From a virus (taxonomy: Duplodnaviria > Caudoviricetes): a DNA stretch of 55,360 bases. The position numbers were made by a program, and so were the translations under genes. Positions 2,353 through 54,178 of the stretch are shown piece by piece. Numbering within the stretch: the first letter of the stretch is position 1; each line of letters starts with the position of its first letter. Under the pieces are notes generated by a model. It worked only from the letters and a program-made list of their open reading frames with translations, did no database searches and had not been told where the DNA came from. Location: positions 1 to 55,360 of the IMG/VR virus record IMGVR_UViG_3300020044_002247; one strand, 5' to 3'.

Positions 2353-2370
2353 AACAACTAAAGGATTCAC

Positions 2371-5262
2371 ATGACCCCGCTTGAATTCCTAGCGGTTGTT
2401 TTGCCGTCCCCGAATCATGGGCTGTATTGCACATGTGAGATGACGGCTAAGAAAGAACACATCTTTGTTCAGGATACAGCCGAGTTTTATCCAAAGATTG
2501 ATACGTGGGTGGAGAACAGATGTAACGTTTATTTTGCATTGGCTACGTTCGACGAGAAGGTTGCGGAGATCAAAGGCAATAAGGATAGGCGCACGATTCC
2601 GAACTCACGCTATATCAAATCTTTATTCATTGATATGGATGGCTATGCTTCCAAGAAAGAAGCGGCTTCTGCATTGAATCGTTTCTTGATGGAGACAGGG
2701 CTTGATCTACTTGGCTTGCCGTGGATTGTTTCATCGGGTGGTGGCATTCATTGTTACTGGCCGTTTGAAAAAGAAATCGAGGTTGCTCAGTGGAAACCTA
2801 TTGCTGAAAATTTTAAACGTCTGTGTGTTCAGCAGAAGTTAAGAATTGATATGACCGTGACGGCTGACTCGGCACGGATACTGCGTGTTCCTGAAACGTT
2901 TAACTTCAAGGACAAGTATCCTGAGCCGCGTCAGGTGCGCATACTGTCTGAAGGCGACATATTTAATTTTGATGATTTAGGTTCGCACATCACGAGCCAA
3001 CTCAAAACTATACCTGCCGTCTCAATGATGCCTACGTTTCAGCTTGAGGGTACACGCCCAACAGCAGCGCCGTCAGCCACAGCAGTTAAGTTGTTCGAGA
3101 ATAGTGTTACCAAGTTCCGCACTATCGTTGAGAAATCAAGGAAGGGTGTAGGCTGCGGGCAGATCATGCACTACATGGAGCATGCCGCTGAAGATGGTAT
3201 GGAGCCGTTGTGGCGTGGTGTTCTGTCGATTGCTCAGAAGTGTGAAGAGCATGAGCAAGCAGTGATTTGGATTTCAGATATGCACCCCTACGATCACGAC
3301 CGTATGCACACCAAGCTACGTGAGATCAAAGGTCCGTATCCGTGCACGAAGTTCGACAGCGAAAATCCGGGCATCTGCACATCATGTCCACACTGGGGGA
3401 AGATTACTAATCCGTTGGCGCTTGGTCGTGAGTATGCGGTTGAGGTTGCGGAGAAAGTAATTGATGTCGGTGTTGAAGAGATGGCACGTCAGATACTTCG
3501 TCCTGAACCGCCACGTGGTTATGCGTATGGTCGTAACGGTGGTGTGTTCATGGAGAAGAATGACGAGGACGCTGAAGGCAACAAGGTTGTGCGCCAAGTA
3601 CCACTGCTTGCATACGACTTGTTTCCTGTGGACATACTGAACATGAATGGCGAACACTTGGTACACATGTCTGTTGTTCGTCACAATCAAGTTGAGACTG
3701 TTACGATTCCGCAGAAGTCCATCGTAAGCAAAGATGAAACAGCAAAGCATCTAGCTAATCAAAACGTGTTGGCTGCGTTTGGTTCAGGCAATGACAAGAA
3801 CTTGTACGACTACGTTCGTGCATGTGTCGAAAAGATGAGCACTGAGAGAATACCAATCATTGTTCCATCTAGTTATGGTTGGCAGGAAGATGAGACGTTT
3901 GTATTTGCGGGCAAGATATATTCTAAGAAAGGCTCAATTGCTGTACCGATGCCGGGCTTAGAGAACATCGCTGCTAATACTGTACCGACAGGAAGCATTG
4001 ACGCATGGCGGGCATTTATACACTTGCTTATTAAGAAAAAGATGTGGAAACATTTGGCTGTCTTTTTAGCAGGTGCAGGGTCAGCGTTAATGAAGTTCAC
4101 AGGTATATACGGCATCATTTACCACTGCGCTTCAACTGCATCTGGTACAGGTAAATCATTAGCGTTGGAAGCGGCTGCATCAATTTGGGGTCATCCTGTT
4201 CATTACCGCACAGGTAAGGGCACGTCACCAGTAGCGATGCAACAACGTCTGGGTTTATTAAACAGCATTTCGTTAATCACTGATGAGATCACATCGAAGA
4301 ACCGCAAAGACTTCTCTTGGTTTCCTGAGTTCTTATTAGATGTAACTGAAGCACGTGGTAAAGAGCGTATGGATTCAGGCTCTAACAAAGAACGCTTGAA
4401 CTTATCGACATGGGCAACTAACTGCCTTATGTCATCCAACACATACACTGTTGACTTCTTAACTGGAGCGCAGGAATTCTCAGCCGAAGGTGAGATGCGA
4501 CGTTTGCTTGAGTTCGCAATGAATGATGTTTTGAAATGGGAACCAGATGAGATTGAGATCATTAAGACGCTACACAGCAACTATGCCATCGCTGGTCACA
4601 TGTTTGTGGAGTATATGGTTAAAGATGTTCCGTCGTTGAAAAGCATGGTTAAGGAATATATACAACAGATGAGTGCTCAGCTAAAGATAACTAATGACGA
4701 ACGTTTCTGGTCAGCAGGTATTGGTGCAAACGTTGCAGCCGCTGTGTTGTTCTCGAACAAGCATGCAGGGATTGTTGACGTACCACTAGAGCCTGTGTTG
4801 GAAGCATACTCAGATGCAATTACGTATATGCGCACATCAATCAAAGCGGGTGCACGTACGGCTGAGGACGTTCTAAATGGGTATACGAGCAAGTACTATG
4901 GCAGCCTAATCATCGTTAAGTTCCACGACAAGAACAGCGTGTTGGCTGAACTTGGTAACGGAGAAGCTATCGATGCGTCAACTACGCGCTCGAATGTCAT
5001 GGGCAGGATTGAGCATGGTGTGACTCCGGGATACATTGACTACTACCTTGAGGAGCGTTTGCTGAAAGCATACTGTGCAACCATGAGCTTTGGTTATGCA
5101 GACTTCAGACGACAGCTTGAGGGAATGTTTAGTGTGACGCACATGCCTAAGAAAGACATGATGGCTAAAACCAGAGGGCCGCAGATGCGTGTATCGGTGT
5201 TACGTATCAGCCGCAGAGAAGATGAAGAAGCTCTCAGTCAGCTATCCTTGGGCATCGACTAA
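2371..5262 (+). CDS. Primase-helicase: RepB/AEP-type primase, DUF927-like region and P-loop helicase
   Basis: FIDMD, SSGGGIHCYW and RILRVP primase motifs; Cys cluster CTKF...CTSC; Walker A ASGTGKS; Walker B LITDE. Confidence 0.85.
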   Translation: MTPLEFLAVVLPSPNHGLYCTCEMTAKKEHIFVQDTAEFYPKIDTWVENRCNVYFALATFDEKVAEIKGNKDRRTIPNSRYIKSLFIDMDGYASKKEAASALNRFLMETGLDLLGLPWIVSSGGGIHCYWPFEKEIEVAQWKPIAENFKRLCVQQKLRIDMTVTADSARILRVPETFNFKDKYPEPRQVRILSEGDIFNFDDLGSHITSQLKTIPAVSMMPTFQLEGTRPTAAPSATAVKLFENSVTKFRTIVEKSRKGVGCGQIMHYMEHAAEDGMEPLWRGVLSIAQKCEEHEQAVIWISDMHPYDHDRMHTKLREIKGPYPCTKFDSENPGICTSCPHWGKITNPLALGREYAVEVAEKVIDVGVEEMARQILRPEPPRGYAYGRNGGVFMEKNDEDAEGNKVVRQVPLLAYDLFPVDILNMNGEHLVHMSVVRHNQVETVTIPQKSIVSKDETAKHLANQNVLAAFGSGNDKNLYDYVRACVEKMSTERIPIIVPSSYGWQEDETFVFAGKIYSKKGSIAVPMPGLENIAANTVPTGSIDAWRAFIHLLIKKKMWKHLAVFLAGAGSALMKFTGIYGIIYHCASTASGTGKSLALEAAASIWGHPVHYRTGKGTSPVAMQQRLGLLNSISLITDEITSKNRKDFSWFPEFLLDVTEARGKERMDSGSNKERLNLSTWATNCLMSSNTYTVDFLTGAQEFSAEGEMRRLLEFAMNDVLKWEPDEIEIIKTLHSNYAIAGHMFVEYMVKDVPSLKSMVKEYIQQMSAQLKITNDERFWSAGIGANVAAAVLFSNKHAGIVDVPLEPVLEAYSDAITYMRTSIKAGARTAEDVLNGYTSKYYGSLIIVKFHDKNSVLAELGNGEAIDASTTRSNVMGRIEHGVTPGYIDYYLEERLLKAYCATMSFGYADFRRQLEGMFSVTHMPKKDMMAKTRGPQMRVSVLRISRREDEEALSQLSLGID

Positions 5263-5410
5263 ACAGGGGCAGGGGTTTTTCATCCCCTGCCTTGATGTTT
5301 ATGCGGTTAAAGAAGAAGGTCTACAAGAGGCGCTTCGGCATCGGGTACTTAATGCCAAAGCGCAAGTAGGTGTTAAGGCTGGTTTAGTTGGCGTCTGGTT
5401 CTTTCGGTAG
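5222..5410 (+). CDS. Small hypothetical protein, possibly DNA-binding
   Basis: MKKLSVSYPW...GQGFFIP...GVWFFR; overlaps the primase end and converges on the giant gene. Confidence 0.55.
   Translation: MKKLSVSYPWASTKQGQGFFIPCLDVYAVKEEGLQEALRHRVLNAKAQVGVKAGLVGVWFFR
5268..5291 (-). terminator. GC-rich hairpin at the convergence point, possible terminator of the late transcript
   Basis: GGCAGGGG-N8-CCCCTGCC; only a weak U-tract on the - strand. Confidence 0.3.
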
Positions 5411-8400
5411 CATCCAAGAACGCATTAGCGAAAGTGTTTTGCGCTGTGTCTATACGTTTTAACACTTCGTCTTTTTGTTCTTGCGACATCTGAGAACGCA
5501 TTACGTTACGACGTATTGTTGCAAACTCACCCAAACGTTGTTGCGCACCACCAGCAATAGAACCTAGCGCGATGTCACCACGTATTCTATCCATCAACTT
5601 CTCAGCACCTTCTGTGTTACCTGATGCCATCATTTCTTTAAACGTGCCCTTAGCTTGTTGGATGTCCAACATCGTAGCGTAGGCTGCATCTAACGTGCCG
5701 CGTCCTTCATCAGGTTGGAACAAACCACCAACGAAAGGCAACTGACTTGTCTTAGTGGTTGGGCGTTCCTTCTCCGCACCTGTGCGGAGGATAGGGTTCA
5801 CCATAGAAACCAGAGCAACACCTAATGGTCCTGTGTAGCCACGTATTAAATGATCTAACTTGATCGGTGTTAAACCTGCATCACCCGTCACGCTACCTAC
5901 CAACTTGGATACTTCAGTCGTACCATCACGATAGCGTTCGGTTGGCAACAATGTTTTCTGTTCACGTTGTGATTCAATATCGCCACCGTAGAACGATTTG
6001 CCTAAGTACACCTCAGTCAACGGCTTAACTGCTTGTGGCAACGAGAGTGGGTTGGACAACGCTAACAGCTTGCCCATACCTTTAGTGATGTCCTCATTAC
6101 GCTTATCTTCAGCCGATGCGTTCATCACTGCTTCAGGTAAAGACTTGAACAAGTACCCCAATTCAAACGGCACAGGTATGCGCATCAACTCATCGCTAAA
6201 CGGATTAGGCACGAACCAGTTACCCAGACGTTCTTCAGGTTTGGCACGTTTGTATCTATCGTCGTCACCCATAGCCGCAGCGTAAGCCATTGTGCATACC
6301 GCCATCAACATACCGCGAGCCAGTAGCTTTCTTTGTATATCTAACTTCTCGCTGTAAGGCATATCGCCTTTAATTGCACGGTACAGAACATCAAGACCTT
6401 GAATCTGTGCATTGAAGAAAGGGATGATAGTAGAAAGCATCTGTATCGATGGCGACAAACCACGGCGACCAAAGTTCATGGACTCAAGCGTACGCAACAA
6501 CGCTTGTTGCTCAGTCATGCCTTTGTTTAGTGAGTCTTTGTAAACGACTGCACGTGTGGCTGCGTCACCTTGCATAGCAAACGCATCGAGCTGCGCCATG
6601 ATCTTAGCCCAACCTGCTTTGCCGGATGTGATCTTGCGTAGGGCTGCTGCCATGTCTTGCTCGTCACCAGTTAGTACGTTACTGGAGATTGCGCCTGAAG
6701 CCATCAACTGACGCTCTACTTCGCTGCGTCCGGCCACCATACTAGAAAGTTCTTTAAACGCATTGAGTACTGGTATGCCATCTGTGCCTGTTGTCATCCA
6801 TGCAGTCAACGGATCACGGATAGCCTGTTTAACTGCATACGCAGGGTTACGTGTAACAAACTGACGTAAGATGTTTGCAGGTATGCCAAGCATCTTCATG
6901 AACGCAGGTATGCTTGTCTTGATACCTTCCATGCCTTTGACGATTAAGTCAGCAGGTATGCCATACAAATCTTTATCAATGACAACGTGATACTGCTCAC
7001 CCTTCTTAAAGAAGCGTACGGTATCAGGACCATCAGGACCCATGCCTTCATTCAAGCGGGTAGCAATACCTACCTTCATTAATGTGAATGCGCTTTCTTT
7101 AATGCTTTGGTTGCGCAAACCCATTTGGGTAATCATGAATGTGTTTTGTATAGCACTGGTAAAGATAGGTTGTATCTGTCTTGCATCGCCAACAAGAGCG
7201 TGTAGTTCGGGCTGGTCACGTAAGTTACCAATACGTATCGGTGTCTCACCAGATACGACTAGCTCAACCACGTCTTTGTCCACACGGTAGTAAGGCACGT
7301 ATGGGATTGACTTTAAACGTGCAGCTTGCTCTGGCTTCATTGCGCCTGTCTGTACCAAGAAGTCCAACAGTCCTGCGTTGTACTGGCGGTAGATGTCCAT
7401 AGCTTTGTCGAACATCGCCTTGTCATCAGGACGGTTTTTCAACGTAGCCACGATGCTGTTGTACTCTGCTTCAGCAGCTTTAGGGTTAGCTACGTTTAGC
7501 GTATCCCAGCCCAACACTTTCGCACGTTCGCCTGCAACCAAAGCCGTTAACATGGCTTCTTTCTCGGTGTCGTTACCAATCTTAGATGGTGCAATAGCAT
7601 CGGCTATCTGCAACATATTGGCACCCGGTGTGCTCTTGTAGATACGCTCCACCCCATTTGGGGTTTTTGTTTCCACCACTTGAACAGGACCATTCGACAA
7701 GAACTGTGTAGCGTACTGGCTGCGGTTCTGACCAAAGCGTAAAAAGTACTCAGCGTTCTGTGCTTCCAAGTCACTGATCTTAGCGTCGCTCAAACCTTCT
7801 TTAAAAGCAGCAGACAACGCAGCGTCTTTATCTACGAACTGCACACGACCTGTTAGCCCTGTCACGTTACCAATTAACGTGTCTTTAAATGCAGGCTTCT
7901 GCGCTACAAACGATTGAGCAACAACAGACGGTTGTGTCTGCGCACGGAAACCAAACGCACCTTTAGCTTTTTCAAACACACCAACAGAATCATCCGACCG
8001 CGCATAGCGTGGGACTTCGGGTTCTATTGTTACGGCTTCGGTAAACTCCGCATCCCTAACAGCGTTAGGCGCGTCTATTGTACCTTCTCGTAAAAATCTA
8101 AACTCGTGTGTAAGTGGTTGATAGCCATTTAACTTTTCAAACGCTTTTTCTATTTTAGTGGCAACCGCTAACTTATCTTCATAAGTTTTTTGATCTCTTA
8201 AAAGAATAACCAAAGGACGATCAAACAAGGATGAGAAATAAAAACTTCTTTCATTATTTTCATTAAGGCTTGTAGGCATGGTGGCTACCACTTGCTCTCT
8301 AAGAGTTTTAGGGTTTATGCCCACCGCTTCCGCTAGTGCATGCGTATATTCTGCATATGCCATTCTTACTTGTGGTGGTAAGTTTGCGGTGCCTGTTTCG

Positions 8401-11400
8401 TCGTTATCTGCTAATACAAAAGCTTTACCAGTTACATCTTCAATACCTTTAGAATCTTTGTATATTTTTTTAAAGTTTCTTATTGCATCAGTAGTCATTA
8501 GATAGTCTACTGTATACGAATCCATTTCTTCCACATTTGCAGTAACTGCTTCTGGCGCAGTTAAATACAAAGCGCCGGTAATCCCGTTTAATACAATATT
8601 TTCTAATTTTACTTTTCCGTTAATAGTGGCCCTTGCATCCCCGCCTCCCGCAGCTCCCAAATTATTAACGACTGCGCCATCTGCCAAGTTAATTTCGGTG
8701 TTGTCTCTTAGCTTTAACGTACCAATCTTTTTTATTTTTGGTAAATTTACTATGGTGCTTGCGCGCACATCCAATGCATTAACGTATTCTAAGTTAACAA
8801 ATTTAGGAGCTGATAATTTATCCACGTCAATCTCAGTTATAGCGCGTACATCTTCATACGGTATTTCGTGAAGATTAGTTGGATTTCCGTCAGCATCAAG
8901 CTCGTCACTAAAAGCGTATGTTAGTACTTTCTTATCTCCGGTATCAATACCCATGCTGCCAAGTAAATAACCTTGCTTTGCTGCATTCTTAAAACTTTTG
9001 TTAAGTTTTTCAGCTACCAAATCTTTTGTTTCTTCAGACGGACGTACACGATAGTGCCCGTAAATAGGACCAAAATCTAATATAGATTCTGCAAGGTCCC
9101 TATCGCTGCCGTATGTTTTTTTAGCCCTAAACTGAAAAAGTTCTTCCGGCGTAAAATCACGGTCATTAGATATAACTTCTTTTAAAATTTGCTTGTTAGC
9201 AAATGCGTTTGTAAATTGAGACGAGTTACTAAAATTCTTTTCATTTAAAAAAGCAGTGGCAATTTTTATTTGTTCAGACGTTAGTCCTTGATCTTTCGTG
9301 TTTCCACGAACTTCGCCTATCTTACTGTCGCCAAACATACGCACAGCAACTTCTGGTCTGCCGCTGTCATAGTAAATATAAAAATCGCCTTCTTTAATTT
9401 GATTAGTAGCATGCCCCATTGATGCGCCAGTACACCACGTTGTGCCTGCAGCACCTGCGTTTAATGCAACAGCAGCCTCATACTCGTCTGACTGATTAAA
9501 CTTTTGCCAACCTTGTTTACGTTTGTTTTCTTTTGCAGCAACGTCAGCATTCTTTTGCAAACCGTCAAGGAAAGCCTGCTTTAAACTTTTACCTGCACGT
9601 AACTCTTCAATGACAGCATTAGCAGACGCGTGTCCAACAACCGCAACAGAATGACGGTTGTTGTCGTCAAGGTTAACTAATTTTAAACGTCCGTCTTTAC
9701 TTGAAATAACGCTGTACTGCGCAGCAGCTTTAGCCACCAACGCTTGTTCGGCAAGCGTGTAATCAGGATTAGATTGCAAATACGTAACTAACGCTTCAAA
9801 GTCTTTGAGGCGTTCTTCGTTTACTTGCTTCGCTTCTTTACGACGTAACTCAGGGTCTTTCAATGCTTCTGCCGCAACCATGTTTGTTACGTCACCAGTA
9901 ATGTAGTGTACTGGATCATCCCGATCAAAAATTCTACCGTCAGGCATTGTTGCATCACGTTTATAATCTAACGTGCTTTTTTCTTCGAAGCCTTTAAGTC
10001 GCTGCTCTTCCGTATTTATGTCGGCTGCTAACTTAAAATCACGAAGAAAGAAATCGCGCTTAAGATCAAAAGGTTTAGTTATAACAACTTGTTTAAGATA
10101 CTTCTCGGGCGTAAACTGCATATTAAACAGTACGTCCATAGCAATACGATCCACATCTTCTGGTTTACGATCTGCTTGTTTAATCAATGGACCAAACTGT
10201 TCAGCAAACTGGCGCATGGAGTTACTGCCCGTATGCAACGCTGCAATGTCTTTAGCGGAATACCTACGATTAGCAGGGACTTCTTTAGGTGCGCCTGAAC
10301 GTTGAACACTGCTTGGGATCATCAAAGCATCAACAGCTTTGATCGATGCGCCTAACATGGTGTCTACATTCTTAACACCCAACATTCTTAATATTGAGCT
10401 TACAAAACCGCGCAGTGCATCAGACACACGCCAAGGCTTATTACGTAACTGCTCTTGTAAGTTACGGTTGGACAGCACTTCAGCAGCAAACTCGGACAGG
10501 CTACCTTTAGCGTTGGTGCTAGTGATACGTGGGTCACGTTTGATTGCGTTGTGTAATGCGCGCAGTTCTTTAAACGCAGCCTGCTGCCCCGGCAATAGCT
10601 TGGTTATATCTTCTTCGCCCAACTGAATGACACGCTCAACAGCAGCGTGTGTACCTTCATGCAACAACACTTCCTGAGACAGACCGCCTTTGCGGCTCAA
10701 CATAATGCGTGTGCTAATTGCTTCGCCCAAGACTTCTTTACCTTCGTTGTCAAACAGCACGTCTTTTATTTCAACACGTGTGTTATCCAACATGTCGGCT
10801 AACGCTTTAGCTACGGCACGGTTTAGATCGCTTGTATTAGGATCGTTGTGGATGTCGTTCAATACATCCGTTAGCTTACCTTCTTCTAACTTAGCAACTT
10901 GGTCTTTAGTTAAGTCAGGGCTTTCAACTTCCACACCACGTGCGTACTTACCTTCCTCTTCCCTTGCTCGTGCTTCAGCTACGTCTGCTGCAGCTTTGGT
11001 CATGGCTGCTGCCATCGCGGTCGATGGTTTCTTAGCGGCACGTTTGCCCATCTCAACCAGCTCTTGCTTGCGTTCGTACTCACGCGTGTTGCCTGTTTCT
11101 TCGTCAAGCATTTCTTCTTCAAACGCAGCTTGATTTTTTGCAGACTGAGCGCGGCTCTCTGTTGAACCCGTTGGGAATTTTTTGAGTACGTTAATTTCGC
11201 GTGTGACTTGTTTGGTGCGTAGGCTCTTAACCGTTTGCTTACCGTACTTACTTTGCTGTGCTGCAGTCGCAGCGTACTCAGCTTGCGCTTCTTGCACGGC
11301 CTCTTCAAAGTCAGGAGACTCTCTACCCTTCTCGATAGCGCGGGCTTTGATTTTCTCAGCAGTTTCTTTTTCAAGTGTTCTAAAAACAGCGTAGGCTTCG

Positions 11401-14207
11401 TCCTGCGCTTTTAATGTTTCGGCTTCTGCTTTCTTAAACTCGTCACTATTTTCGCCAAACTCGTTTTTAACTTTGGCAACTTTTGCCATTTCTTTTTTAT
11501 AGTTAACTTTAAACGCATCAAGCGCTTCTTTAACTGCTTTTGTTTGCTGCGTGTAGAAGCGTTTAACAGCGGGCAGCGTCATGCCCAAATCTTCAGCTAC
11601 GGCATCTTCACTAACTTCAGCGGTTGTTGCGGCAACAGCTTGTTCAGAACGAACACGGTTTGATTTACCTAAAGCAAGAACTTCAGCTTGCTTCTCTGCT
11701 TCTGTTTTAGGCGTACTGGTTTTATATACTGATTGTTGTAATGCTTTTAATCTGTCCATGTGCGGTTTAACAACCGCAAGCTGGTTTGCTAAATGTTCTT
11801 TAGCTTTTGCTAGTTTAACTTTTGCCCTAGCAATTTTTGCTGGGTCAGCTTTAGCATCTTTTAATTCTGCTAGTTCTTGCTCTTTCAAGATGCGCTCAAC
11901 GGATAGGTCATGCAACCTTTCCATCATCGAGCGCTTGTACACACCTTTCTTAGTGGTGTGGCCTTCTTCCATTTTCTTTCTTTGTGCAGCAAGTTCATCT
12001 GCTATTTGCTCAGACAAATACACTTCTTGTTTGTTACCGTTGTGGTCAGTGTACGTGTATGTACCTTGCACTTTCTCGTAACGTTTGATACCGCGAATAG
12101 CATCTTTAAATGTTTCTTCTGTTTTAGTGTTTTCGCTTGGCTGAGTTAAGTATCCTGACTTACGATCTCTACGACGTTCTGCATCCTCGTTCTCACGATG
12201 CAGTTTGCTTAACAGTGCTTGGTCGCCATTGAGAGTGGCAGTTCTAAGTACGTTAAAGTCGCTAAACAAATCTTGCGTAGTATCTACACGCTTCTCTTCT
12301 GTATCAGGCTGCACGGGTCCTGCCTTAATATCAGGCGTAACTTTACCCATCTTGCGTCCTGTTACAGCGTTGACCATTTGTACTGGCTTGGTCTTACGTG
12401 GAATTACAGGTGTCTCAGAAGCAGGGAACAAGTTCATTGTCTCGTTCACTTCTACTTTAGGACGACGCATTCTGCGTTGACGCTCGATCTCTTCTTTGGC
12501 TCTGTCGCCAAACAAGTCAGGCTGCATGGTGCCACGCACACGCTTTTCTTTTTCGGGCGGGAGGGGTCCCGCGCCAGCTTCGATTGGTTTAACAACTTCT
12601 TTATTGGCTTGCTGTACAGGCTCAAACAACGATGGTGTTTCGTTCTTAGGCGTTGCCTGTATGCGGAATAACTGCTTGCCTCTATCTAAAGCATCAACAG
12701 CTTCTTGACGTTTCTTTTTAAGCTCTTCTAGCTTGGCGGTAATTTTTGCTTCCGCAACAGTGTCGCCATTAGTGACTGCTGTTGCAAGACGGTTAGTAGT
12801 TGTTTTTAAATTTTTATCGAGTGCAGCAATTTGGTTTTGCTGCATTGCAATAAACTGATCTTTGTTTCCGCCACCGCCCTGCGCTTCAATACCTGTACGT
12901 AATTCTTCAAGCGCATTTTTCTTTTGCTCAAATTCAGCTCGCAATGCTTTGAGTTTTTCTAAATCTCCGGCGTTAATTGCGTTCTGCCTTGCATCTTGTA
13001 GTGCATCAACGTCTTTTTCAAGCACCTTATACTCGTCCATCATATCGATGACGTTGCGTGGGGCAGCAGGTGTGCTTGGCGGTGCCACATCTGTTCGAAC
13101 AGTTGGTTCTGGGATTGGTTCCGCAGTTGCTGCCGCTAGCTGTTCTTGTACTGCTTGAATTGCTTGAGCCGCATCTTGCGGTGCAGCAGGTGCAGTAGGT
13201 TCAACAGGGGCAGGAGGTGTTATCGCGGGAGGGGTCCCGCCTTGTGGTTGTACAGGACTGCCAGTAAAAGGCGCAGTAACACCAGCACCAAGCGCACCCA
13301 TTAAAGCTTCTTGTGTAGCGGCACCCGCCACACCTTCCATAGTAGGCGTAGCAAACCCTTGCTTCTGTAACGCCAAGTTCGCAGCCAGTTGTTCTTGTCC
13401 GCCTTGTACACCTTCAGTAAACGCTTCAGAACCAATAGCGCCAAGTTTACGAACCGCTTTACCTGCTGTAGGCGCAAGCAATTCTTCCAAACCTGTACGA
13501 CCTGCTACGTAACCCAAGCCACCACCAGCTGCAATACTGCCTAAGTTCTCGCCCATGTAGGACTGTGCTTGAGCCGCAGTCTGTGCAGCTTCTTCGTCAG
13601 ACATCCCTGACTTTTTCAATGCGTTGTAGACGTTATCGTAAATGGTGCCTTTAACCGCGCCCGCACCTTCCAGTACACCAATAGCCGTATTCGCCGCAGC
13701 ACGTGCGGCAATACCTGCACGGGCAACACCCACACCGGGAATCAATAACGTGGCTAAGTTAGGAACAATAGAACCGACTGCTTGTGCAGCGGATTGGATA
13801 GGTGCGGCTTTAACACCTTGTAGTGCGACTTTGGCTTCAGCTAAAGCACCTTCTTCTTTAGCCTTCTCCATTTGATCTTGGTAATACGCAAGTTCTCTTT
13901 GACGTGCAGGCGAATACATGCCTGACAGTTCTTCTTGCGTTTTACCTAACGATTGAGACACCGCGTTGTCTGCGCCAAAGACATCGGCAATAGTTTTACC
14001 TACACCGACAACACCTTGACCCGCAGCAACGGCGGTATCTTTTAACGAGAACGGCGCAGTAGGTACGCCCTCTGGCGTGGGTGCCTGCACAGGTGCAGGC
14101 GGTGCCATCATTCTTGCTATTTCGTCAGCAAGAATCCGCGCATCCTCTGTTCTACCTGCCTTATCTGCATTGATGAGAGCCGCTTCAAGCTGACGTATTG
14201 TTGGCAT
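5373..14207 (-). CDS. Giant internal virion (ejection) polyvalent protein: coiled coils, HExxH metallopeptidase, PcfJ-like domain, LRR-like segment, C-terminal LPD38-like domain
   Basis: 2944 aa; LLHEGTH...SEFAAE; GTTWCTG...FYIY...AVRM...EVRG; RIPVPFELG; last gene of the virion operon. Confidence 0.75.
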   Translation of the reverse strand: MPTIRQLEAALINADKAGRTEDARILADEIARMMAPPAPVQAPTPEGVPTAPFSLKDTAVAAGQGVVGVGKTIADVFGADNAVSQSLGKTQEELSGMYSPARQRELAYYQDQMEKAKEEGALAEAKVALQGVKAAPIQSAAQAVGSIVPNLATLLIPGVGVARAGIAARAAANTAIGVLEGAGAVKGTIYDNVYNALKKSGMSDEEAAQTAAQAQSYMGENLGSIAAGGGLGYVAGRTGLEELLAPTAGKAVRKLGAIGSEAFTEGVQGGQEQLAANLALQKQGFATPTMEGVAGAATQEALMGALGAGVTAPFTGSPVQPQGGTPPAITPPAPVEPTAPAAPQDAAQAIQAVQEQLAAATAEPIPEPTVRTDVAPPSTPAAPRNVIDMMDEYKVLEKDVDALQDARQNAINAGDLEKLKALRAEFEQKKNALEELRTGIEAQGGGGNKDQFIAMQQNQIAALDKNLKTTTNRLATAVTNGDTVAEAKITAKLEELKKKRQEAVDALDRGKQLFRIQATPKNETPSLFEPVQQANKEVVKPIEAGAGPLPPEKEKRVRGTMQPDLFGDRAKEEIERQRRMRRPKVEVNETMNLFPASETPVIPRKTKPVQMVNAVTGRKMGKVTPDIKAGPVQPDTEEKRVDTTQDLFSDFNVLRTATLNGDQALLSKLHRENEDAERRRDRKSGYLTQPSENTKTEETFKDAIRGIKRYEKVQGTYTYTDHNGNKQEVYLSEQIADELAAQRKKMEEGHTTKKGVYKRSMMERLHDLSVERILKEQELAELKDAKADPAKIARAKVKLAKAKEHLANQLAVVKPHMDRLKALQQSVYKTSTPKTEAEKQAEVLALGKSNRVRSEQAVAATTAEVSEDAVAEDLGMTLPAVKRFYTQQTKAVKEALDAFKVNYKKEMAKVAKVKNEFGENSDEFKKAEAETLKAQDEAYAVFRTLEKETAEKIKARAIEKGRESPDFEEAVQEAQAEYAATAAQQSKYGKQTVKSLRTKQVTREINVLKKFPTGSTESRAQSAKNQAAFEEEMLDEETGNTREYERKQELVEMGKRAAKKPSTAMAAAMTKAAADVAEARAREEEGKYARGVEVESPDLTKDQVAKLEEGKLTDVLNDIHNDPNTSDLNRAVAKALADMLDNTRVEIKDVLFDNEGKEVLGEAISTRIMLSRKGGLSQEVLLHEGTHAAVERVIQLGEEDITKLLPGQQAAFKELRALHNAIKRDPRITSTNAKGSLSEFAAEVLSNRNLQEQLRNKPWRVSDALRGFVSSILRMLGVKNVDTMLGASIKAVDALMIPSSVQRSGAPKEVPANRRYSAKDIAALHTGSNSMRQFAEQFGPLIKQADRKPEDVDRIAMDVLFNMQFTPEKYLKQVVITKPFDLKRDFFLRDFKLAADINTEEQRLKGFEEKSTLDYKRDATMPDGRIFDRDDPVHYITGDVTNMVAAEALKDPELRRKEAKQVNEERLKDFEALVTYLQSNPDYTLAEQALVAKAAAQYSVISSKDGRLKLVNLDDNNRHSVAVVGHASANAVIEELRAGKSLKQAFLDGLQKNADVAAKENKRKQGWQKFNQSDEYEAAVALNAGAAGTTWCTGASMGHATNQIKEGDFYIYYDSGRPEVAVRMFGDSKIGEVRGNTKDQGLTSEQIKIATAFLNEKNFSNSSQFTNAFANKQILKEVISNDRDFTPEELFQFRAKKTYGSDRDLAESILDFGPIYGHYRVRPSEETKDLVAEKLNKSFKNAAKQGYLLGSMGIDTGDKKVLTYAFSDELDADGNPTNLHEIPYEDVRAITEIDVDKLSAPKFVNLEYVNALDVRASTIVNLPKIKKIGTLKLRDNTEINLADGAVVNNLGAAGGGDARATINGKVKLENIVLNGITGALYLTAPEAVTANVEEMDSYTVDYLMTTDAIRNFKKIYKDSKGIEDVTGKAFVLADNDETGTANLPPQVRMAYAEYTHALAEAVGINPKTLREQVVATMPTSLNENNERSFYFSSLFDRPLVILLRDQKTYEDKLAVATKIEKAFEKLNGYQPLTHEFRFLREGTIDAPNAVRDAEFTEAVTIEPEVPRYARSDDSVGVFEKAKGAFGFRAQTQPSVVAQSFVAQKPAFKDTLIGNVTGLTGRVQFVDKDAALSAAFKEGLSDAKISDLEAQNAEYFLRFGQNRSQYATQFLSNGPVQVVETKTPNGVERIYKSTPGANMLQIADAIAPSKIGNDTEKEAMLTALVAGERAKVLGWDTLNVANPKAAEAEYNSIVATLKNRPDDKAMFDKAMDIYRQYNAGLLDFLVQTGAMKPEQAARLKSIPYVPYYRVDKDVVELVVSGETPIRIGNLRDQPELHALVGDARQIQPIFTSAIQNTFMITQMGLRNQSIKESAFTLMKVGIATRLNEGMGPDGPDTVRFFKKGEQYHVVIDKDLYGIPADLIVKGMEGIKTSIPAFMKMLGIPANILRQFVTRNPAYAVKQAIRDPLTAWMTTGTDGIPVLNAFKELSSMVAGRSEVERQLMASGAISSNVLTGDEQDMAAALRKITSGKAGWAKIMAQLDAFAMQGDAATRAVVYKDSLNKGMTEQQALLRTLESMNFGRRGLSPSIQMLSTIIPFFNAQIQGLDVLYRAIKGDMPYSEKLDIQRKLLARGMLMAVCTMAYAAAMGDDDRYKRAKPEERLGNWFVPNPFSDELMRIPVPFELGYLFKSLPEAVMNASAEDKRNEDITKGMGKLLALSNPLSLPQAVKPLTEVYLGKSFYGGDIESQREQKTLLPTERYRDGTTEVSKLVGSVTGDAGLTPIKLDHLIRGYTGPLGVALVSMVNPILRTGAEKERPTTKTSQLPFVGGLFQPDEGRGTLDAAYATMLDIQQAKGTFKEMMASGNTEGAEKLMDRIRGDIALGSIAGGAQQRLGEFATIRRNVMRSQMSQEQKDEVLKRIDTAQNTFANAFLDATERTRRQLNQP

Positions 14208-49609: not shown

Positions 49610-51139
49610 TTAATAATATGCCGCTTTGCGTCCGATGCGACTGAACTTGTCGTCACGTTCATCAGAATCAAGGGTAATAAACCCCCCTTGTCTGAAGCGT
49701 AACAATGCCTGAGACGTAGTATCCACGTAATCGTCGTGTTCGCCAACAGGAAATGCGGCGATTTCTTCAATCACTTCTCTTGCCCATCTTGTGTCTGGTG
49801 CCCACACCGTGCCGGACGAAAACAAATCCGATACAGCATTTAGTCGGACGACTTTGTCGTTGCCACGGGAGGGATTGGTTTCTTGGACGGGGATTCCCAT
49901 CGCTCGGAGTTCTTGGATGAGGGGTGCACCAGCCGCCTTTTTCTCCACAATGAAGGCATCGGGTTCCCACTCTTTGTAGTGTTTAAGTGCGACACGCTTT
50001 AGCTCCGGGAAGTCCATACGGTCTTTGAACGCATCCAACAGGATGACCTGCGGCTTCATGTTCTCTTCCTCATTATAGAACACGCCCCACGTTGTGCAAG
50101 CAGAAAAGTCGGCGGTGGTCTTTGCCTCAAACGCCGTATCCCATGACTGTATTATATAGTCGCACTTTGGTGGGTCATCGTGATCCCATAACCGCCAGCT
50201 CTTTCGGGAGATGATGGCTGACGACTCGGATGTCGGCTGCTGCATGTACTGCGCGTTCCAATACCGTGGGTCAAGTGACGCTTTGACTTTCTTCATCGAT
50301 TCCAACGGCCACTGCTCCGGCCACAGACTTTTCTCTTTCTCCGTGTTCTCGAACAGGATCGCTGGCAACTCGACAATCTCCCACGGCTCCGCATCTGGGT
50401 TGCGTGTTTGATAATCCATCAGACGACCTGTCAGGTCGAGCAACGACCACCGCGTCATAACTACTATGATCGCCCCACCCGGCATCAAACGTTGGAGTGG
50501 ACCCGTTTGGAACCAAGACCACGCCGTATCGAACGCGAGTCTACTGTTTGACTTTACATCTTGCTCGGAATGAGGATCATCAATAACAAATAAGTCAGCA
50601 CCACGCCCAGCAAGAGCACCACCAACACCAGCAGCATAATATTGCCCGCCCGCGCCCGTCGACCATTTGCCCGCAGCTTTCTGATCGTCCGCGACAGTCG
50701 TGTCTGGGAATATGGTTTTGTATTCATCTGAGTCAATTAAGTTTCGAACCCTACGACCGAAGTCCTCTGACAGACCTGCGGTGTGGGTGCCCATGATGAT
50801 TTTCTTTTGTGGAAACCTGCCTAAGAAGTACGCCGGGAATAGATACGACGCAAACTCCGATTTTCCGTGGCGAGGCGCGATATTGATAATGACCCTCTTC
50901 TTTTTGCCTGCAATAACATCTTCAAAGATTTTTGCAAGTTTCCGATGGTGCGGGCCAACTTTAAAGCCCGGATAAACTTCGGTTGCGAAGCCCAGTATGG
51001 ATGTCTGCGCGACCTTCTTACCCGCACGAGCCGTCCGTTCTTCGAGGTCAGCAAGTAGTTCTGCTTTCTCCGCCGCAGTGTAGAGGTGTAGATTCTTTTG
51101 GAGTGCCCGAATTTCATTCTGACTCATCAACGGATTCAT
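49610..51139 (-). CDS. terL: Terminase large subunit
   Basis: APRHGKS Walker A, VIDDP Walker B, MTRW, QSWDTA and HDDYVD nuclease motifs. Confidence 0.95.
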   Translation of the reverse strand: MNPLMSQNEIRALQKNLHLYTAAEKAELLADLEERTARAGKKVAQTSILGFATEVYPGFKVGPHHRKLAKIFEDVIAGKKKRVIINIAPRHGKSEFASYLFPAYFLGRFPQKKIIMGTHTAGLSEDFGRRVRNLIDSDEYKTIFPDTTVADDQKAAGKWSTGAGGQYYAAGVGGALAGRGADLFVIDDPHSEQDVKSNSRLAFDTAWSWFQTGPLQRLMPGGAIIVVMTRWSLLDLTGRLMDYQTRNPDAEPWEIVELPAILFENTEKEKSLWPEQWPLESMKKVKASLDPRYWNAQYMQQPTSESSAIISRKSWRLWDHDDPPKCDYIIQSWDTAFEAKTTADFSACTTWGVFYNEEENMKPQVILLDAFKDRMDFPELKRVALKHYKEWEPDAFIVEKKAAGAPLIQELRAMGIPVQETNPSRGNDKVVRLNAVSDLFSSGTVWAPDTRWAREVIEEIAAFPVGEHDDYVDTTSQALLRFRQGGFITLDSDERDDKFSRIGRKAAYY

Positions 51140-51698
51140 GTTCCTCCACTTCCGTCACGTCAGTGACATCGACGATCTGTGCCATTTTGTTAAGCTTCTC
51201 TTTAATACGTAGCTCCAGTTCTGCATCAGACAGCTCGGTTTTCTTGACTTCTATCTTGTCTGTGAACAGCCCGACTTCGGTAATCTTGCCCAACATACCT
51301 AGCGCTTTTAATCTTATAGACGCTGTCGGGTGCTCACAATCTTCCAGTATTTTAGCCACAGCATAGCCACGCAGTTCTTGCGCACGTTCGACAAACTGCC
51401 AATCGTAAGCTGTGAGCATACTAACTAAATGCTGCACTGCAGCAGGGGTTTTAATTTTTGTGAGATTTTGCACAGCCGTATCTGAGCCTGTGGCTACGCC
51501 AGTAAAAGCGTGTTGCACTTGTTGCGTTTGCAAGTTCGTTAAAACTTCTTCTTCGGTGACTGCCCCGATGGATTCTAACCATTCAGTCGTTTTGACTTGC
51601 GCGTCCACGACTGCTGTAGGCTCACTTTTTTCAAGCGGCACAAAGTCTGCGGAGTCGTCGTCCACGTCTGGGGTAAAAAATATTAAGTGATCTAGCAT
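51114..51698 (-). CDS. terS: Terminase small subunit (putative)
   Basis: Directly upstream of terL; RLKALGMLGK...GLF; start at MLDHL behind AAGGA. Confidence 0.6.
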   Translation of the reverse strand: MLDHLIFFTPDVDDDSADFVPLEKSEPTAVVDAQVKTTEWLESIGAVTEEEVLTNLQTQQVQHAFTGVATGSDTAVQNLTKIKTPAAVQHLVSMLTAYDWQFVERAQELRGYAVAKILEDCEHPTASIRLKALGMLGKITEVGLFTDKIEVKKTELSDAELELRIKEKLNKMAQIVDVTDVTEVEEHESVDESE

Positions 51699-51708
51699 GC
51701 GCAGGTCC

Positions 51709-51738
51709 TTTACAACCTCGTTGCGCGGAGTGTATAGT
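51709..51738 (+). promoter_or_regulatory. Putative sigma70 promoter of the sRNA
   Basis: TTTACA-N18-TATAGT. Confidence 0.55.
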
Positions 51739-51744
51739 GCTTTT

Positions 51745-51835
51745 GGCAAGTGTGCAAGCGGCAACGCGAACTCATTTGCTTCTCCTTCACTTGTTTGAGT
51801 GAACTTCGCCCCGGTGCAATACCGGGGATTTTTTT
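51745..51835 (+). ncRNA. Candidate anti-RBS small RNA (~90 nt)
   Basis: Promoter upstream; GCG-GCAA-CGC GNRA hairpin; seed CAUUUGCUUCUCCUU; hairpin UUCACU/AGUGAA; intrinsic terminator. Confidence 0.6.
51809..51835 (+). terminator. Rho-independent terminator on the + strand with no + strand gene upstream
   Basis: CCCCGGT-GCAAT-ACCGGGG-A-T7. Confidence 0.8.
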
Positions 51836-51844
51836 ATAATATTG

Positions 51845-51860
51845 TGTCAAACGTTAGACA
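51845..51860. promoter_or_regulatory. 16-bp palindromic operator candidate (family A)
   Basis: TGTCAAACGTTAGACA, 13/16 identical to 454-469. Confidence 0.55.
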
Positions 51861-52279
51861 CTTATCATCTTGATATTTTGAAATTCGGTCATCAATGCTG
51901 CAAACTCTGCTTTGGTCATGCCGCTTTGCAAAATGATCTTCTCGACTGCATCGTAAGTCTTGCGAGGGGCGACAATCGCTTCACGTTTCGGTGATGATTT
52001 TGCAGAGAGCGATCTGCGTGTTTCACCTCTGAGGTTAGCCATGATGTCACGCACCATTGTTTTCATCGTTTCATACTTGGCGTGCTTGGTAGGCAATACG
52101 ATCTCTCCTCTGAACTCGACAGGCTTTGCACCTTCGAACCTAGTGCACACATACTCGACAACAACCGGACGCTGCGTAGCAGGTGTATCGAAACCCGCTG
52201 CGTGCATCTCGATCTGCATATCGATCTGTGACTCTAAGAAACGTGTGATTGCTGCGAAAGCTGCTTGTTTGTTTGACAT
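51854..52279 (-). CDS. Hypothetical protein, divergent early-type gene
   Basis: 141 aa from MSNKQ with RBS AAGGAGA. Confidence 0.7.
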   Translation of the reverse strand: MSNKQAAFAAITRFLESQIDMQIEMHAAGFDTPATQRPVVVEYVCTRFEGAKPVEFRGEIVLPTKHAKYETMKTMVRDIMANLRGETRRSLSAKSSPKREAIVAPRKTYDAVEKIILQSGMTKAEFAALMTEFQNIKMISV

Positions 52280-52595
52280 GGTAAATCTCCTTTGGGTAAG
52301 TGTTGTGTCGCAGAGCGAATTCCCTATCGACAAGACCCATTATCCATACACCCCGAAACGGTCAGCGATTCTCAGCCTGAATCGGGGTCATTGTGACCCT
52401 GATGATCGGCATATCTCGACCCCACCGTACCCCCACCCACCCTTTTTGACGGGGCTAGGCAGCTCGGCAGAGTATACGTGCAAGAGATAAGCGATAGACG
52501 TACTCATGCTGAGTACTTCCCGTCAGTATACGGGTTGATGTGGGACAAGTGAGCATGAGGGTCACAGTGACCCTTGCAAAATCACCTGTTTCCTA

Positions 52596-52877
52596 CCTAT
52601 CCATGATTTTGCACACTATCCAACACCCATGCCATCGCATAACCCGCGCAGATACTGGCGATGTCTAACTTGTGTCCCATATATATATCTATTTAAAAAT
52701 ACTTATATATACGTGATGGTGTCCTTTCTGGCAGCGGACAAGACTTTATCCTTGACCCTTTGCCCTTGTTGCTTTCTCAAAACATGGTATACTAGGGACA
52801 CAAGTCGTGCAAAGCTAGGCGCAGCAAGGGTTTTGGCGTGGCACGGGTAATGGATACTTAACAAAATCAAGGATACT
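52596..52877. other. Candidate replication origin: 83-bp imperfect inverted arms flanking an AT-rich spacer
   Basis: 52596-52678 vs reverse complement of 52795-52877 align without gaps at 56/83 by hand count; AT tract 52679-52711. Confidence 0.6.
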
Positions 52878-52880
52878 CAC

Positions 52881-53696
52881 ATGGATACCTCATACAAACG
52901 ATACCTCTCGTACCCTAACCGTGAGCTACAAGCGCACCTCGACAAACAGAAGGACACCATGCCAATCGAGGTACGTGAAGAGATCATGCGGCAGGTGCGA
53001 GAGCATCGCAAAGAACTACGCTCAGTCACGGCAAAAAAACGTACGGTGAACGCAGCATGGGCAGAGATCATGCGTCCGCTGAAGAGCGAGCTACGCATTG
53101 TCAAAAACATGGGACGCTATACCTCAAAGACGTACCACGTGCCCGAACGTAGCAAGGCGATCGCTGAATACCGTGCGGTATTGGAAAAGGCGGTCAGGCT
53201 GTTAACAAAATATCAGGCGGGCGATTACACACCACGTGTACTAGCCAAGATGAAGAACGTGCAAAATCATGGCGCGCATTGGGTCGATTGGATACCCGAA
53301 TCGGTGAGGGTCACGGTGACCCTTATGTTTGAAGCGATACCGCATCACTTCAAGGCGAAATCCAAAGTGCCGTTTGAGAGGCGCAATATAGATGACAAGC
53401 GGGACGTGTTGATACGTAGGTTGACACGTACCGTGAAGGAAGAACTCGATCGGGCGTACAAGGACTTAGCCAATGACCCCGATGAGTACGATAACCAAGA
53501 CCATCACGAGTACATAGCCCGTATGGAATTGGCGCAGCAAGCGATCATCGCATTACCGGATGACGCATACATACCTGCCACGTGGCAGGGTTTATTTAAA
53601 CCACCGAAGGAGAATCAAGATGACCCAAGCAGAGAAACTAGTAATGCAATTCAAGAAACAACAAGCGATGAACATACCGACAGTCGTGGTGCATAA
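52881..53696 (+). CDS. Hypothetical basic helical early protein
   Basis: 271 aa; HWVDWIP...PFER...PATWQGL; first gene after the inverted repeat. Confidence 0.75.
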   Translation: MDTSYKRYLSYPNRELQAHLDKQKDTMPIEVREEIMRQVREHRKELRSVTAKKRTVNAAWAEIMRPLKSELRIVKNMGRYTSKTYHVPERSKAIAEYRAVLEKAVRLLTKYQAGDYTPRVLAKMKNVQNHGAHWVDWIPESVRVTVTLMFEAIPHHFKAKSKVPFERRNIDDKRDVLIRRLTRTVKEELDRAYKDLANDPDEYDNQDHHEYIARMELAQQAIIALPDDAYIPATWQGLFKPPKENQDDPSRETSNAIQETTSDEHTDSRGA

Positions 53697-53810: not shown

Positions 53811-53990
53811 ATGATACGACCACCGATGCCACGCATACCACGCACACGTGCAACCAATCTCAGCGACAAGGGCATGACGTTGCTGCAGTTTGCGGAGTAC
53901 GTAATAAACAAGGCACGTGTGCACGTGCCAACTACTATCAACATGGGGGTCACTGTGACCCCCAACCAACCGGAAGGAGCAGCAAAATGA
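53811..53990 (+). CDS. 59-aa early protein (absent from the ORF track)
   Basis: GGAG RBS; MIRPPMPR...; ATGA coupling to the next gene. Confidence 0.55.
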   Translation: MIRPPMPRIPRTRATNLSDKGMTLLQFAEYVINKARVHVPTTINMGVTVTPNQPEGAAK

Positions 53991-54178
53991 CCAATGCTGA
54001 AGTCGAAAAAAAGATGGAGCACTTAGCGCACTCGTTAGATGGTGCACTCGATCTGTTATCAGGCGACATCTGGTACGCAGATAAGGTGTTGTATCGAGAG
54101 GACGTAACCGATGCGTTGAATGACGCATACCGCAGCGTTACAAAAGCAATCGACTTACTGAAAGGAAAAGCAAAATGA
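53987..54178 (+). CDS. 63-aa early protein
   Basis: MTNAEVEKK behind GAAGGAG. Confidence 0.65.
   Translation: MTNAEVEKKMEHLAHSLDGALDLLSGDIWYADKVLYREDVTDALNDAYRSVTKAIDLLKGKAK

Follow-up and report, generated by a model that had tools for sequence, protein, structure and literature searches.

Phage antisense RNAs such as P22 sar and lambda OOP are short, carry their own promoter and intrinsic terminator and base-pair on phage mRNAs, and the c4 RNA of P1 and P7 is cut from the same transcript as its target and serves lysogenic immunity by controlling an antirepressor. The accessible part of PMC12197685 mentions sar and OOP, describes how exposed complementary stretches of c4 bind around the ribosome-binding site (RBS) of a phage mRNA and block its translation, and states that few phage small RNAs (sRNAs) are known to regulate the phage's own genes, most being cis-antisense or temperate-phage immunity RNAs. 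A different type of small RNA is represented by the Betaproteobacteria toxic sRNAs (RF02278), whose members in Burkholderia cenocepacia have 57-92 nucleotides (nt), end in terminators and exert toxicity in E. coli after cloning there; those known so far are encoded on chromosomes, and in the accessible portion of PMC4603805 their function is given as unknown. Here we analyze a locus of the IMG/VR virus record IMGVR_UViG_3300020044_002247 (Duplodnaviria; Caudoviricetes), a linear stretch of 55,360 bases which is treated as a whole and referred to as the window (completeness ca. 86% by the CheckV estimate). On its + strand, at about 51745-51835 and beside the DNA-packaging genes, the window very likely carries a discrete gene for a structured sRNA of about 91 nt.

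Compared with the described systems, the predicted sRNA is closest to c4 in mechanism and to the betaproteobacterial toxic small RNAs in shape, and by model scores it is a member of neither. Like c4, it is a phage-encoded structured small RNA that would act on a site other than its own antisense strand, but it has no sequence or structure match to c4, has its own promoter and terminator beside the packaging genes, and matches several early/middle start regions located 4-20 kb away. The C4 antisense RNA model of Rfam (RF01695, the accession given in a table of PMC4603805) had no match at E values up to 10 in either 3001 or 351 bases, and no lysogeny gene was noticed among the few window proteins scanned. 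More generally, no Rfam 15 family reached its gathering score over positions 50500-53500, where 4 matches on 3001 bases and 8 on 351 bases all stayed below it. The best-scoring model was RF02278 (29.0 bits, E 0.0005 on 351 bases, 51779-51835 on the + strand, gathering score 50), and RF02837, anti-hemB or Burkholderia RNA 7, scored 25.0 bits over 51772-51835 (+) against a gathering threshold of 49.5. The likeness to RF02278 consists of a CU-rich 5' stretch (UCUCCU), a short hairpin and a G+C terminator with its U-tract, at similar size, whereas the match omits stem-loop 1 of the window sRNA and the seed of the latter, i.e. the stretch that would pair with target mRNAs, extends into the complement of a phage-specific spacer. 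Unlike sar and OOP, each of which is encoded on the strand facing its sole target, to which it is complementary throughout, the window sRNA shows conserved complementarity to distant start regions and probably does not overlap the main late leader. A literature search, with supplementary annotations outside its scope, found no description of this RNA, and in the accessible part of an HTVC023P-type genome paper (PMC9599517) the terms sRNA, small RNA, noncoding and promoter are absent. Sequence comparisons indicate a real, new family that is absent from Rfam.

Anatomy, conservation and covariation of the sRNA locus

The initial annotation of this DNA, made from the letters alone, had proposed a self-contained sRNA unit on the + strand, and each of the elements on which it relied is in place. 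A promoter-like TTTACA-N18-TATAGT occupies 51709-51738 (-35 TTTACA at 51709-51714, 18-nt spacer, -10 TATAGT at 51733-51738; 10 of 12 consensus matches), and the predicted transcript of about 91 nt (51745-51835) would start 7 nt past the -10 and finish in the U-tract. In the minimum free energy (MFE) fold, stem-loop 1 (51745-51780) has the apical GNRA hairpin GCG-GCAA-CGC at 51758-51767 and contains in its 3' arm CAUUUGCU, part of the stretch complementary to start regions. Between it and stem-loop 2 (51786-51803) lies UCUCC (51781-51785), the core complementary to a Shine-Dalgarno (SD) sequence, which is single-stranded with an unpaired probability of 0.99-1.0 for all five bases. Stem-loop 3 (51809-51835) is an intrinsic terminator, CCCCGGUG-CAA-UACCGGGG followed by A and U7, whose hairpin (51809-51827) has 8 pairs, 6 of them G-C, before the T7 of the DNA. 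The extended seed CAUUUGCUUCUCCUU (15-mer CATTTGCTTCTCCTT, 51773-51787, +) is the complement of the SD, spacer and AUG of the gene starting at 491, and CATTTGCTTCTCCTT is, as had been claimed, the exact reverse complement of AAGGAGAAGCAAATG at 479-493. The + strand sRNA has an MFE of -34.1 kcal/mol (z -3.25), compared with -26.0 kcal/mol (z -1.5) for the - strand.

Taken alone, these features of the window, including the exact 15-mer match, amount to no more than chance. Inverted exact 15-mers lying more than 200 nt apart occur as 4 position pairs (3 of them independent), against 2.1 +/- 2.0 with a maximum of 9 in 30 dinucleotide shuffles, which agrees with the annotation's own caveat that a few such repeats are expected in 55 kb. 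A 3-kb scan found 4 promoter-like sites where 3.3 are expected, and 3 terminator-like sites where 2.8 are expected. The case was therefore made from conservation and covariation in relatives.

Relatives were collected from IMG/VR, where a query with the large terminase protein TerL gave at least 600 related stretches and one with the product of the gene at the terS position (terS in what follows) gave 275. Of the 159 related loci taken, 141 extended 330 nt or more upstream of terS and yielded 118 distinct sequences, or 119 with the window. Their terS proteins align from residue 1 and are 52-63% identical to that of the window, yet the intergenic region retains one architecture which, read in the direction of the sRNA, consists of a TTG-type -35, a spacer, TAYAYT, about 7 nt, hairpin 1, (U)CUCC(U), hairpin 2, UUU or UUC, a G+C hairpin and a T-run. 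A simple descriptor, which requires a -10 followed by a G+C hairpin and a run of at least five T on the strand opposite to terS, is passed by 117 of the 119 regions, with the T-run on that strand in all 117, and the two that fail it (L020 and L029) are matched by covariance models. The position of the -10 is fixed by this descriptor, while the spacing and the TTG of the -35 are not; TTGnnn precedes TAYAYT by a spacer of 17 nt in 106 of the 117 and of 18 nt in the other 11.

When the 117 sequences were folded at MFE without constraints, 111 formed exactly three hairpins whose first linker contains (U)CUCC(U), and most of these 111 folds show (U)(U)CUCC(U)(U) as the sequence joining stem-loop 1 to stem-loop 2. 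The anti-SD stretch, a 10-12-mer, is almost invariant, with or without an ATG following it on the - strand, and the sequence of stem-loop 2 varies among relatives with its pairing retained. Two properties had been singled out in advance as decisive in relatives, namely the orientation of the terminator and the GNRA loop, and both are kept: the former in 117 of 119 regions, with all model matches on one strand, and the latter as GCAA or GUGA in the forms with a short stem 1, the family consensus being GCAA.

The predicted length of the sRNA ranges from 70 to 134 nt because a subset has an extra hairpin within stem-loop 1. This hairpin, TTGGCC-NNNN-GGCCAA (e.g. in L117, L129, L148, L078 and L064), takes the RNA from about 85 to about 120-134 nt; its sequence is alike in sRNA subtypes that differ otherwise, which is reminiscent of a small insertion that is mobile or has recurred.

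A first covariance model, built from two gapless sequences and searched in 100 sources, gave 93 matches in 91 of them, all on the strand opposite terS, the match in the window being on the + strand. Among the 2066 model-aligned pair cells 93.4% are paired, versus 67.9% after shuffling and 44.7-54.0% when the partners are slid by 1-3 columns. In the alignment of the 93 matches both sides have changed in 24 of the 25 model pairs, and the covariation score is 0.589, versus 0.196 for shuffled alignments (0 of 500 reach 0.589) and at most 0.094 for slid ones. All three helices contribute, with changes on both sides in 9 of 9 pairs of helix 1 (93.8% of cells paired), 6 of 6 pairs of helix 2 (91.6%) and 9 of 10 pairs of helix 3. 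A second model, R2, was built from the 93 matches, and its sole match in the window is on the + strand (49.8 bits, E 8e-8). Promoter spacing, three covarying hairpins, terminator orientation and anti-SD core are hence kept in more than 100 diverged relatives, as expected for the self-contained unit that had been proposed.

Other outcomes of these searches were a weak R2 match of 18 bits (L076:37-93) and a possible second copy of the sRNA at 3345-3444 of L074 (24 bits), which was rejected, being without a terminator and overlapping a start codon. MAFFT followed by RNAalifold on 40 sequences recovered just 3 consensus pairs because the variable hairpins were misaligned, and two MAFFT seed alignments (A2 and A3) were left out, their terminator arms being out of register.

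Concerning the strand, the sRNA sequence folds more stably than its complement in 110 of the 117 cases, with a mean difference of 7.6 kcal/mol, and 516 of the 3447 predicted pairs (15%) are G-U pairs, which would be A-C on the other strand. Since G-U pairs are present and the complement folds worse, an RNA is indicated, rather than a DNA cruciform or a protein site on the duplex. No conserved + strand peptide was found among the 117 sequences, 38 of which are without any ATG. A 176-aa + strand open reading frame (ORF; 51960-52490) was considered as a gene that the element could lead, and was rejected as the shadow of an antisense gene of 141 aa: the - strand ORF is conserved in 36 loci (E down to 2e-23), versus 13 loci with weaker mirror matches for the 176-aa ORF. 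Because the latter mirrors a conserved - strand gene, the sRNA element is not regarded as the leader of a + strand gene. A search of sequencing runs gave 3 runs from 2 studies (shares 0.07-0.26), all of them Logan contigs of relatives, probably derived from DNA, which carry no information on strand or transcript ends.

As regards the distribution of the family, the window had no blastn match among cultured phages, and the nearest of these by TerL (tblastn) are DSL-LC04 and the pelagiphages HTVC023P and HTVC027P, at no more than 53% identity. R2 found no match in the whole records of DSL-LC04 and HTVC023P, the window match serving as positive control; the family therefore seems confined to an uncultured freshwater clade.

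Complementarity to early/middle start regions

We propose, with a probability of roughly 0.55, that the sRNA is a trans-acting translational repressor of early/middle genes. The seed was scored against 163 candidate start regions with an SD-like sequence (mean duplex energy -10.6 kcal/mol, standard deviation 3.6), and ranks 1 to 4 are occupied by 491 (-24.3), 53987 (-20.7), 54175 (-18.9) and 53620 (-18.7 kcal/mol), all of them + strand genes and the last three small ones. The complementarity to a set of early/middle genes on the strand of the sRNA, best at 491, is thereby borne out; of the other starts listed as nearly complementary in the initial annotation, 53987, 54175 and 53620 hold, but 53811 does not, with rank 14 and -15.9 kcal/mol. 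The best predicted target, AAGGAGAAGCAAAUG (479-493, +), comprises SD, spacer and AUG of the gene 491-895, the first of a replication/recombination operon. The other candidate target regions, also on the + strand, are GAAGGAGCAGCAAAAUG (53972-53989, gene start 53987), AAAGGAAAAGCAAAAUG (54160-54177, gene start 54175) and GAAGGAGAAUCAAGAUG (53605-53622, gene start 53620). When the full structure of the sRNA is taken into account, the energy of the dimer minus the monomers is -18.2 kcal/mol for 53620, -9.6 for 491, -8.2 for 54175 and -5.5 for 53811, while 14 further genes tested, 53987 not among them, gave 0 to -5.6 kcal/mol. When both strands of the whole window were scanned for duplexes with a 30-nt seed region, the output was noisy, with 491 in 7th place after the self-complement and gappy sites inside genes, in part on non-coding strands.

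The start-region sequence complementary to the seed is biased towards one strand. Allowing up to 3 mismatches, the seed 15-mer has 8 matches in the window versus 1.75 +/- 1.24 expected, a number reached by none of 100 shuffles. Over six genomes the motif GGAGAAGCAA (at most 1 mismatch) stands at the starts of 19 of 211 genes on the sRNA strand versus 3 of 267 on the late strand (Fisher p 4e-5), in a count that used a crude gene caller and in which homologous genes are counted repeatedly and are not independent. In five further whole genomes AGGAGAAGCAA(ATG) occurs on several genes per genome, and the best start regions lie on the strand of the sRNA with few exceptions; in G002, 3 of the 7 best are on the opposite strand, one of them being the complement of the sRNA locus itself. 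Upstream regions of 491 homologues contain the motif within 1 edit in 34 of 41 distinct cases, and exactly in 10.

For covariation between seed and target, which the initial annotation had put forward as a test, the observations point both ways. Contigs with both the sRNA and a 491 homologue number 26 and provide 22 distinct pairs, whose lineages are not independent. In 19 of these 22 at least 10 contiguous pairs form, G-U allowed. Seed and target share variants, GGAGAAAAGUAA going with UUACUUUUCUCC in L109 and an extra A/U being present in L057 and L081, and by hand counts the single-base differences within the core are G-U-compatible in 9 cases versus C-A in 2. Cognate duplexes have -19.8 kcal/mol versus -17.9 for non-cognate ones (permutation p 0.005, 16 distinct pairs). 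These same-genome results are to be taken as support, not proof.

A number of observations weigh against repression in trans. At the level of structure, only 5 bases of the seed are unpaired, and the remainder of the 15-mer is within hairpin 1 and must open; 53987, second by plain duplex energy, falls to only -3.8 kcal/mol once structure is counted. The pair counts given above come from an alignment that was fitted to the model and is thereby biased towards the structure, although the structural signal is argued to be real because the slid controls and the independent strand asymmetry support it. The 491 homologue of G003 is missing from the top seven start regions. Cognate duplexes gain 1.9 kcal/mol, a small advantage that carries no phylogenetic correction. 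The seed does not track the target in six distinct pairs (eight contigs). GUAA in the target faces UUGC (wobble) in the seed in L147, L129, G023, G025, G028 and G029, and a C-A mismatch between seed and target is found in L100/L101 and G030/G031; counted by type, 6 distinct pairs differ by a wobble alone and 2 by a C-A mismatch. Finally, the complete records G024 and G032 keep a 491 homologue with GGAGAAGUAA or GGAGAAGCAA, and neither of them contains a homologue of terS, an R2 match with E of 0.01 or below, or a copy of the 10-mer on the opposite strand. Copies of the motif stand on early genes of both of these sRNA-less records, one in G024 and three, on one strand, in G032. As the motif is kept there without a recognisable sRNA, it must have a reason apart from the sRNA. 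R2 matches with E of 0.01 or below were obtained for only 7 of the 26 further records with a 491 homologue, most of them fragments. The more sensible inference is that a class-specific start-region sequence existed first and that the seed would be kept in agreement with it, rather than the other way round.

The promoter of the target operon is found at 427-469 (+), with -35 TTGCAT (427-432), -10 TAAAAT (449-454) and a 16-bp palindrome, TGTCTAACTGTAGACA (454-469), over the likely start site; in relatives it reads TTGCAA-N16/17-GTGTACACT, followed directly by GTCYAAC..TAGACA. This palindrome (TGTCTAACTGTAGACA / TGTCAAACGTTAGACA; palindrome TGTCYAACNNTWGACA) occurs at just two sites in the window. 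The copy at 454-469 (+) begins with the final -10 base of the 491 promoter and covers the likely start site, and that at 51845-51860 is located 9 nt past the T-run of the sRNA and shares bases with the stop codon of the 141-aa gene. Of the 41 distinct regions upstream of 491 homologues 32 contain the palindrome, which is also located about 10-13 nt downstream of the sRNA terminator in many, not all, relatives. It has the appearance of an operator to which a dimeric regulator of the phage would bind. In addition, 430-493 and 51773-51880 (-) align as one module formed by the palindrome, an A/T-rich stretch and AAGGAGAAGCAAATG, the terS-side copy having a 48-nt insertion that contains both 3' hairpins of the sRNA. 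Because the two loci align in this way, it is suggested that the sRNA gene arose from an inverted duplicate of the promoter and leader of its target.

Proposed mode of action and competing explanations

In the proposed mechanism, a host sigma-70-type RNA polymerase would transcribe the sRNA of about 91 nt from a promoter back to back with that of terS, and the transcript would end at its own intrinsic terminator. The RNA would fold into three hairpins with UCUCC exposed between hairpins 1 and 2, and this core would nucleate on the SD of those early/middle mRNAs that have the start region AGGAGAAGCAA(AUG). Pairing would then proceed across spacer and start codon as the lower, wobble-rich part of the stem of hairpin 1 opens; the 3' arm of this hairpin holds the UUUGC part of the seed, and in relatives its stem is G-U-rich. 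With SD and AUG occluded, binding of the 30S subunit would be blocked and the translation, possibly also the stability, of early/middle mRNAs would be lowered. The main target would be the first gene of the replication/recombination operon (491), and the small genes at 53620 and 54175 would probably be affected too. A U-rich linker and a U7 tail are features of the kind seen in chaperone-dependent sRNAs, and a chaperone may be needed here as well.

The likely terS, i.e. late, promoter is predicted at 51757-51729 (-), with -35 TTGCAC (51757-51752), a 17-nt spacer and -10 TACACT (51734-51729), and would share the -10 region with the sRNA promoter. In relatives the 10-mer at the -10 is palindromic or nearly so (AGTGTACACT, AGTATATACT and similar), the terS-side -35 is of the TTGCGC/TTGCAC type with a spacer of 17 nt in 65 of the 117 sequences (18 nt in 32, 16 nt in 10 and 19 nt in 10), and the ATG of terS lies 25-46 nt beyond this promoter. 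If both directions fire, the start sites of the sRNA and of the late operon would be divergent and, as estimated from the hexamer positions, about 23 bp apart, which differs from prokaryotic bidirectional promoters, whose typical start spacing was reportedly 18 bp in the original description. The near-palindromic -10 AGTGTACACT with TTG-type -35 elements on both sides, on the other hand, resembles such promoters, which in bacteria are pseudo-symmetrical and in which one polymerase binding event excludes the other (accessible parts of PMC12825309 and PMC10268837). This element would link the sRNA physically to the activity of the late promoter. That the sRNA is also cis-antisense to the late leader, as had been suggested, is doubtful: since the predicted promoters are divergent, with the terS promoter firing away from the sRNA, the main late transcript would not overlap the sRNA, and only read-through from the 141-aa gene could produce an overlap.

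A broader proposal is that the sRNA, as the RNA counterpart of a translational repressor and made from a promoter fused to the late packaging promoter through the shared palindromic -10, executes the early-to-late switch at the post-transcriptional level by repressing the AGGAGAAGCAA(AUG) class of mRNAs throughout a widespread clade of uncultured freshwater phages. We advance it tentatively, as a possibility that falls short of even odds.

The leader of terS (51699-51727, -) could itself form a hairpin, GCGCA...TGCGC, with the SD AAAGGA in its loop and a stem that ends at the ATG, and relatives retain this arrangement with changed arms, e.g. GCGCAT...ATGCGC. It may be a translational control element of terS.

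Several other explanations of the locus have to be weighed against repression in trans. The sRNA could act in cis, pairing over its full length with - strand read-through from the 141-aa gene (52279-51854) and insulating the late operon by cleavage or termination, with the start-region match as a by-product of the duplicated promoter/leader module. Between the 141-aa gene and terS there is no - strand terminator, an A-run preceding the hairpin and no T-run following it, and the palindrome and AAGGAGAAGCAAATG shared with the 491 promoter region, split by the 48-nt insertion, do look like a duplicated module. However, pairing in cis would place no constraint on the sequence itself, and the near-invariance of the anti-SD 10-12-mer beside freely varying hairpins 2 and 3 fits a partner in trans; moreover, indel variants occur jointly in the seed and in the remote start region of 491, and the likely terS promoter is downstream of the sRNA gene, which would leave the main late leader without overlap. 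We therefore regard a role in cis as an unlikely account of the locus, though one compatible with a role in trans, the two not being mutually exclusive. It is a little less likely still that the RNA is directed at the host, as a general anti-SD RNA whose CU-rich single strand binds strong host SDs and helps to shut off or re-programme host translation, in the manner described for the betaproteobacterial toxic small RNAs, the start regions of the phage not being its principal target. The exposed UCUCC core is presumably similar to the anti-SD core of 16S rRNA. The nearest Rfam models, RF02278 (29 bits) and RF02837 (25 bits), align over the CU-rich stretch, hairpin and terminator, and toxicity in E. 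coli of cloned RF02278 members is documented in the accessible part of PMC4603805; both scores are nonetheless far below the gathering thresholds, and beyond the complement of the SD the conservation also covers UUGC, a match to the spacer in phage start regions rather than to the SD.

The two remaining explanations dispense with the sRNA as the active molecule. Sites of pac type often adjoin terS, as this locus does, and its hairpins could be a pac signal; or else the act of transcription could matter, a bidirectional -10 competing with the terS promoter and the terminator halting the by-product before it reaches the 141-aa and early genes. The 10-mer AGTGTACACT and its variants are near-palindromic with a TTG-type -35 on both sides, and bidirectional promoters with mutually exclusive polymerase binding have been described (PMC12825309 and PMC10268837, accessible parts). 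A by-product, however, would retain neither three hairpins in which 24 of 25 pairs have changed on both sides nor an invariant single-stranded core, and 15% of G-U pairs and a complement folding 7.6 kcal/mol worse are not what a DNA element would show, all of which makes these possibilities improbable. Read on the - strand, AAGGAGAAGCAAATG could instead be the RBS of a 21-codon leader peptide (51775-51710) whose translation is coupled to that of terS. This upstream ORF, raised as a caveat in the initial annotation, does exist in the window, with a strong SD, a 6-nt spacer, an ATG and 21 codons ending 12 nt before the terS ATG. Its peptide is not conserved, as that annotation expected for an sRNA gene: when a start was sought 4-10 nt past the SD in the 117 distinct sequences, ATG was present in 59, TTG in 4 and no start in 51, with no SD by the rule used in 3, and the ORFs run from 1 to more than 38 codons, in differing frames relative to terS and with unrelated peptides, although AGGAGAAGCAA is nearly invariant. 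Furthermore, the likely terS promoter would be inside or downstream of the ORF, and the RNA structure is selected on the opposite strand. The leader peptide, to which we assign only a very small probability, is thus close to refuted.

Genomic setting and significance

The + strand genes of the window are at 1-5262 and from about 52600 to the end, and include the C-terminal piece of a helicase, the 134-aa protein of 491-895, a helix-turn-helix protein, a DUF927 primase/helicase and several small ORFs. The late genes form a single - strand block from 51698 down to 5373, with the terS-position gene, TerL, portal and structural genes. TerL (49610-51139, -) matches phrog_38 at 1e-104. The terS-position gene (51114-51698, -; 194 aa) is directly upstream of TerL, and PHROG and Pfam scans of its protein gave no match. 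At the far end of the block, 5373-14207 (-) is an ORF of 2944 aa; giant virion-associated proteins of about this size are known in some podoviruses. Upstream of terS, on the other side of the sRNA locus, the 141-aa gene (52279-51854, -) has an SD of its own and its probable start at ATG 52279, preceded by AAAGGAGA; a longer form of 159 aa spans 51854-52333. The 159-aa form had no Pfam or PHROG match, and an Atlas search with the 141-aa protein gave nothing at 0.9 or above, low-TM structure rows only, and no informative neighbour.

With respect to the main candidate target, the 491-895 product has a weak match to Pfam Phage_Mu_Gam (20.1 bits versus a cut-off of 28.3) and one to phrog_13900 ('minor head protein') at 1e-20, a name that conflicts with Mu_Gam. 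A role in DNA-end binding or replication is suggested by its position as the first gene before the primase/helicase. In five records (G024, G032, G026, G022 and G027, corresponding to L220, L279, L225, L208 and L236) the 491-type gene is shared at 70-83% identity together with its promoter and motif, and no homologue of the window terS and no sRNA match were found. Replication and packaging modules, the sRNA belonging to the latter, are therefore exchanged as separate blocks.

The sRNA family is present in well over 100 related freshwater phage contigs and has unusually strong comparative support for a find made from metagenomic contigs alone, and its seed reads as complementary to a motif by which the start regions of early/middle genes are marked. 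It also indicates that reading raw sequence can detect real non-coding genes in uncultured viruses. If repression in trans is true, lytic-type environmental phages would time their gene expression with a trans-acting anti-SD RNA, the extended ribosome-site and spacer sequence shared by their early genes would be explained, and the seed together with the start-region code would constitute a compact translational off-switch, ready for trial in reporters.

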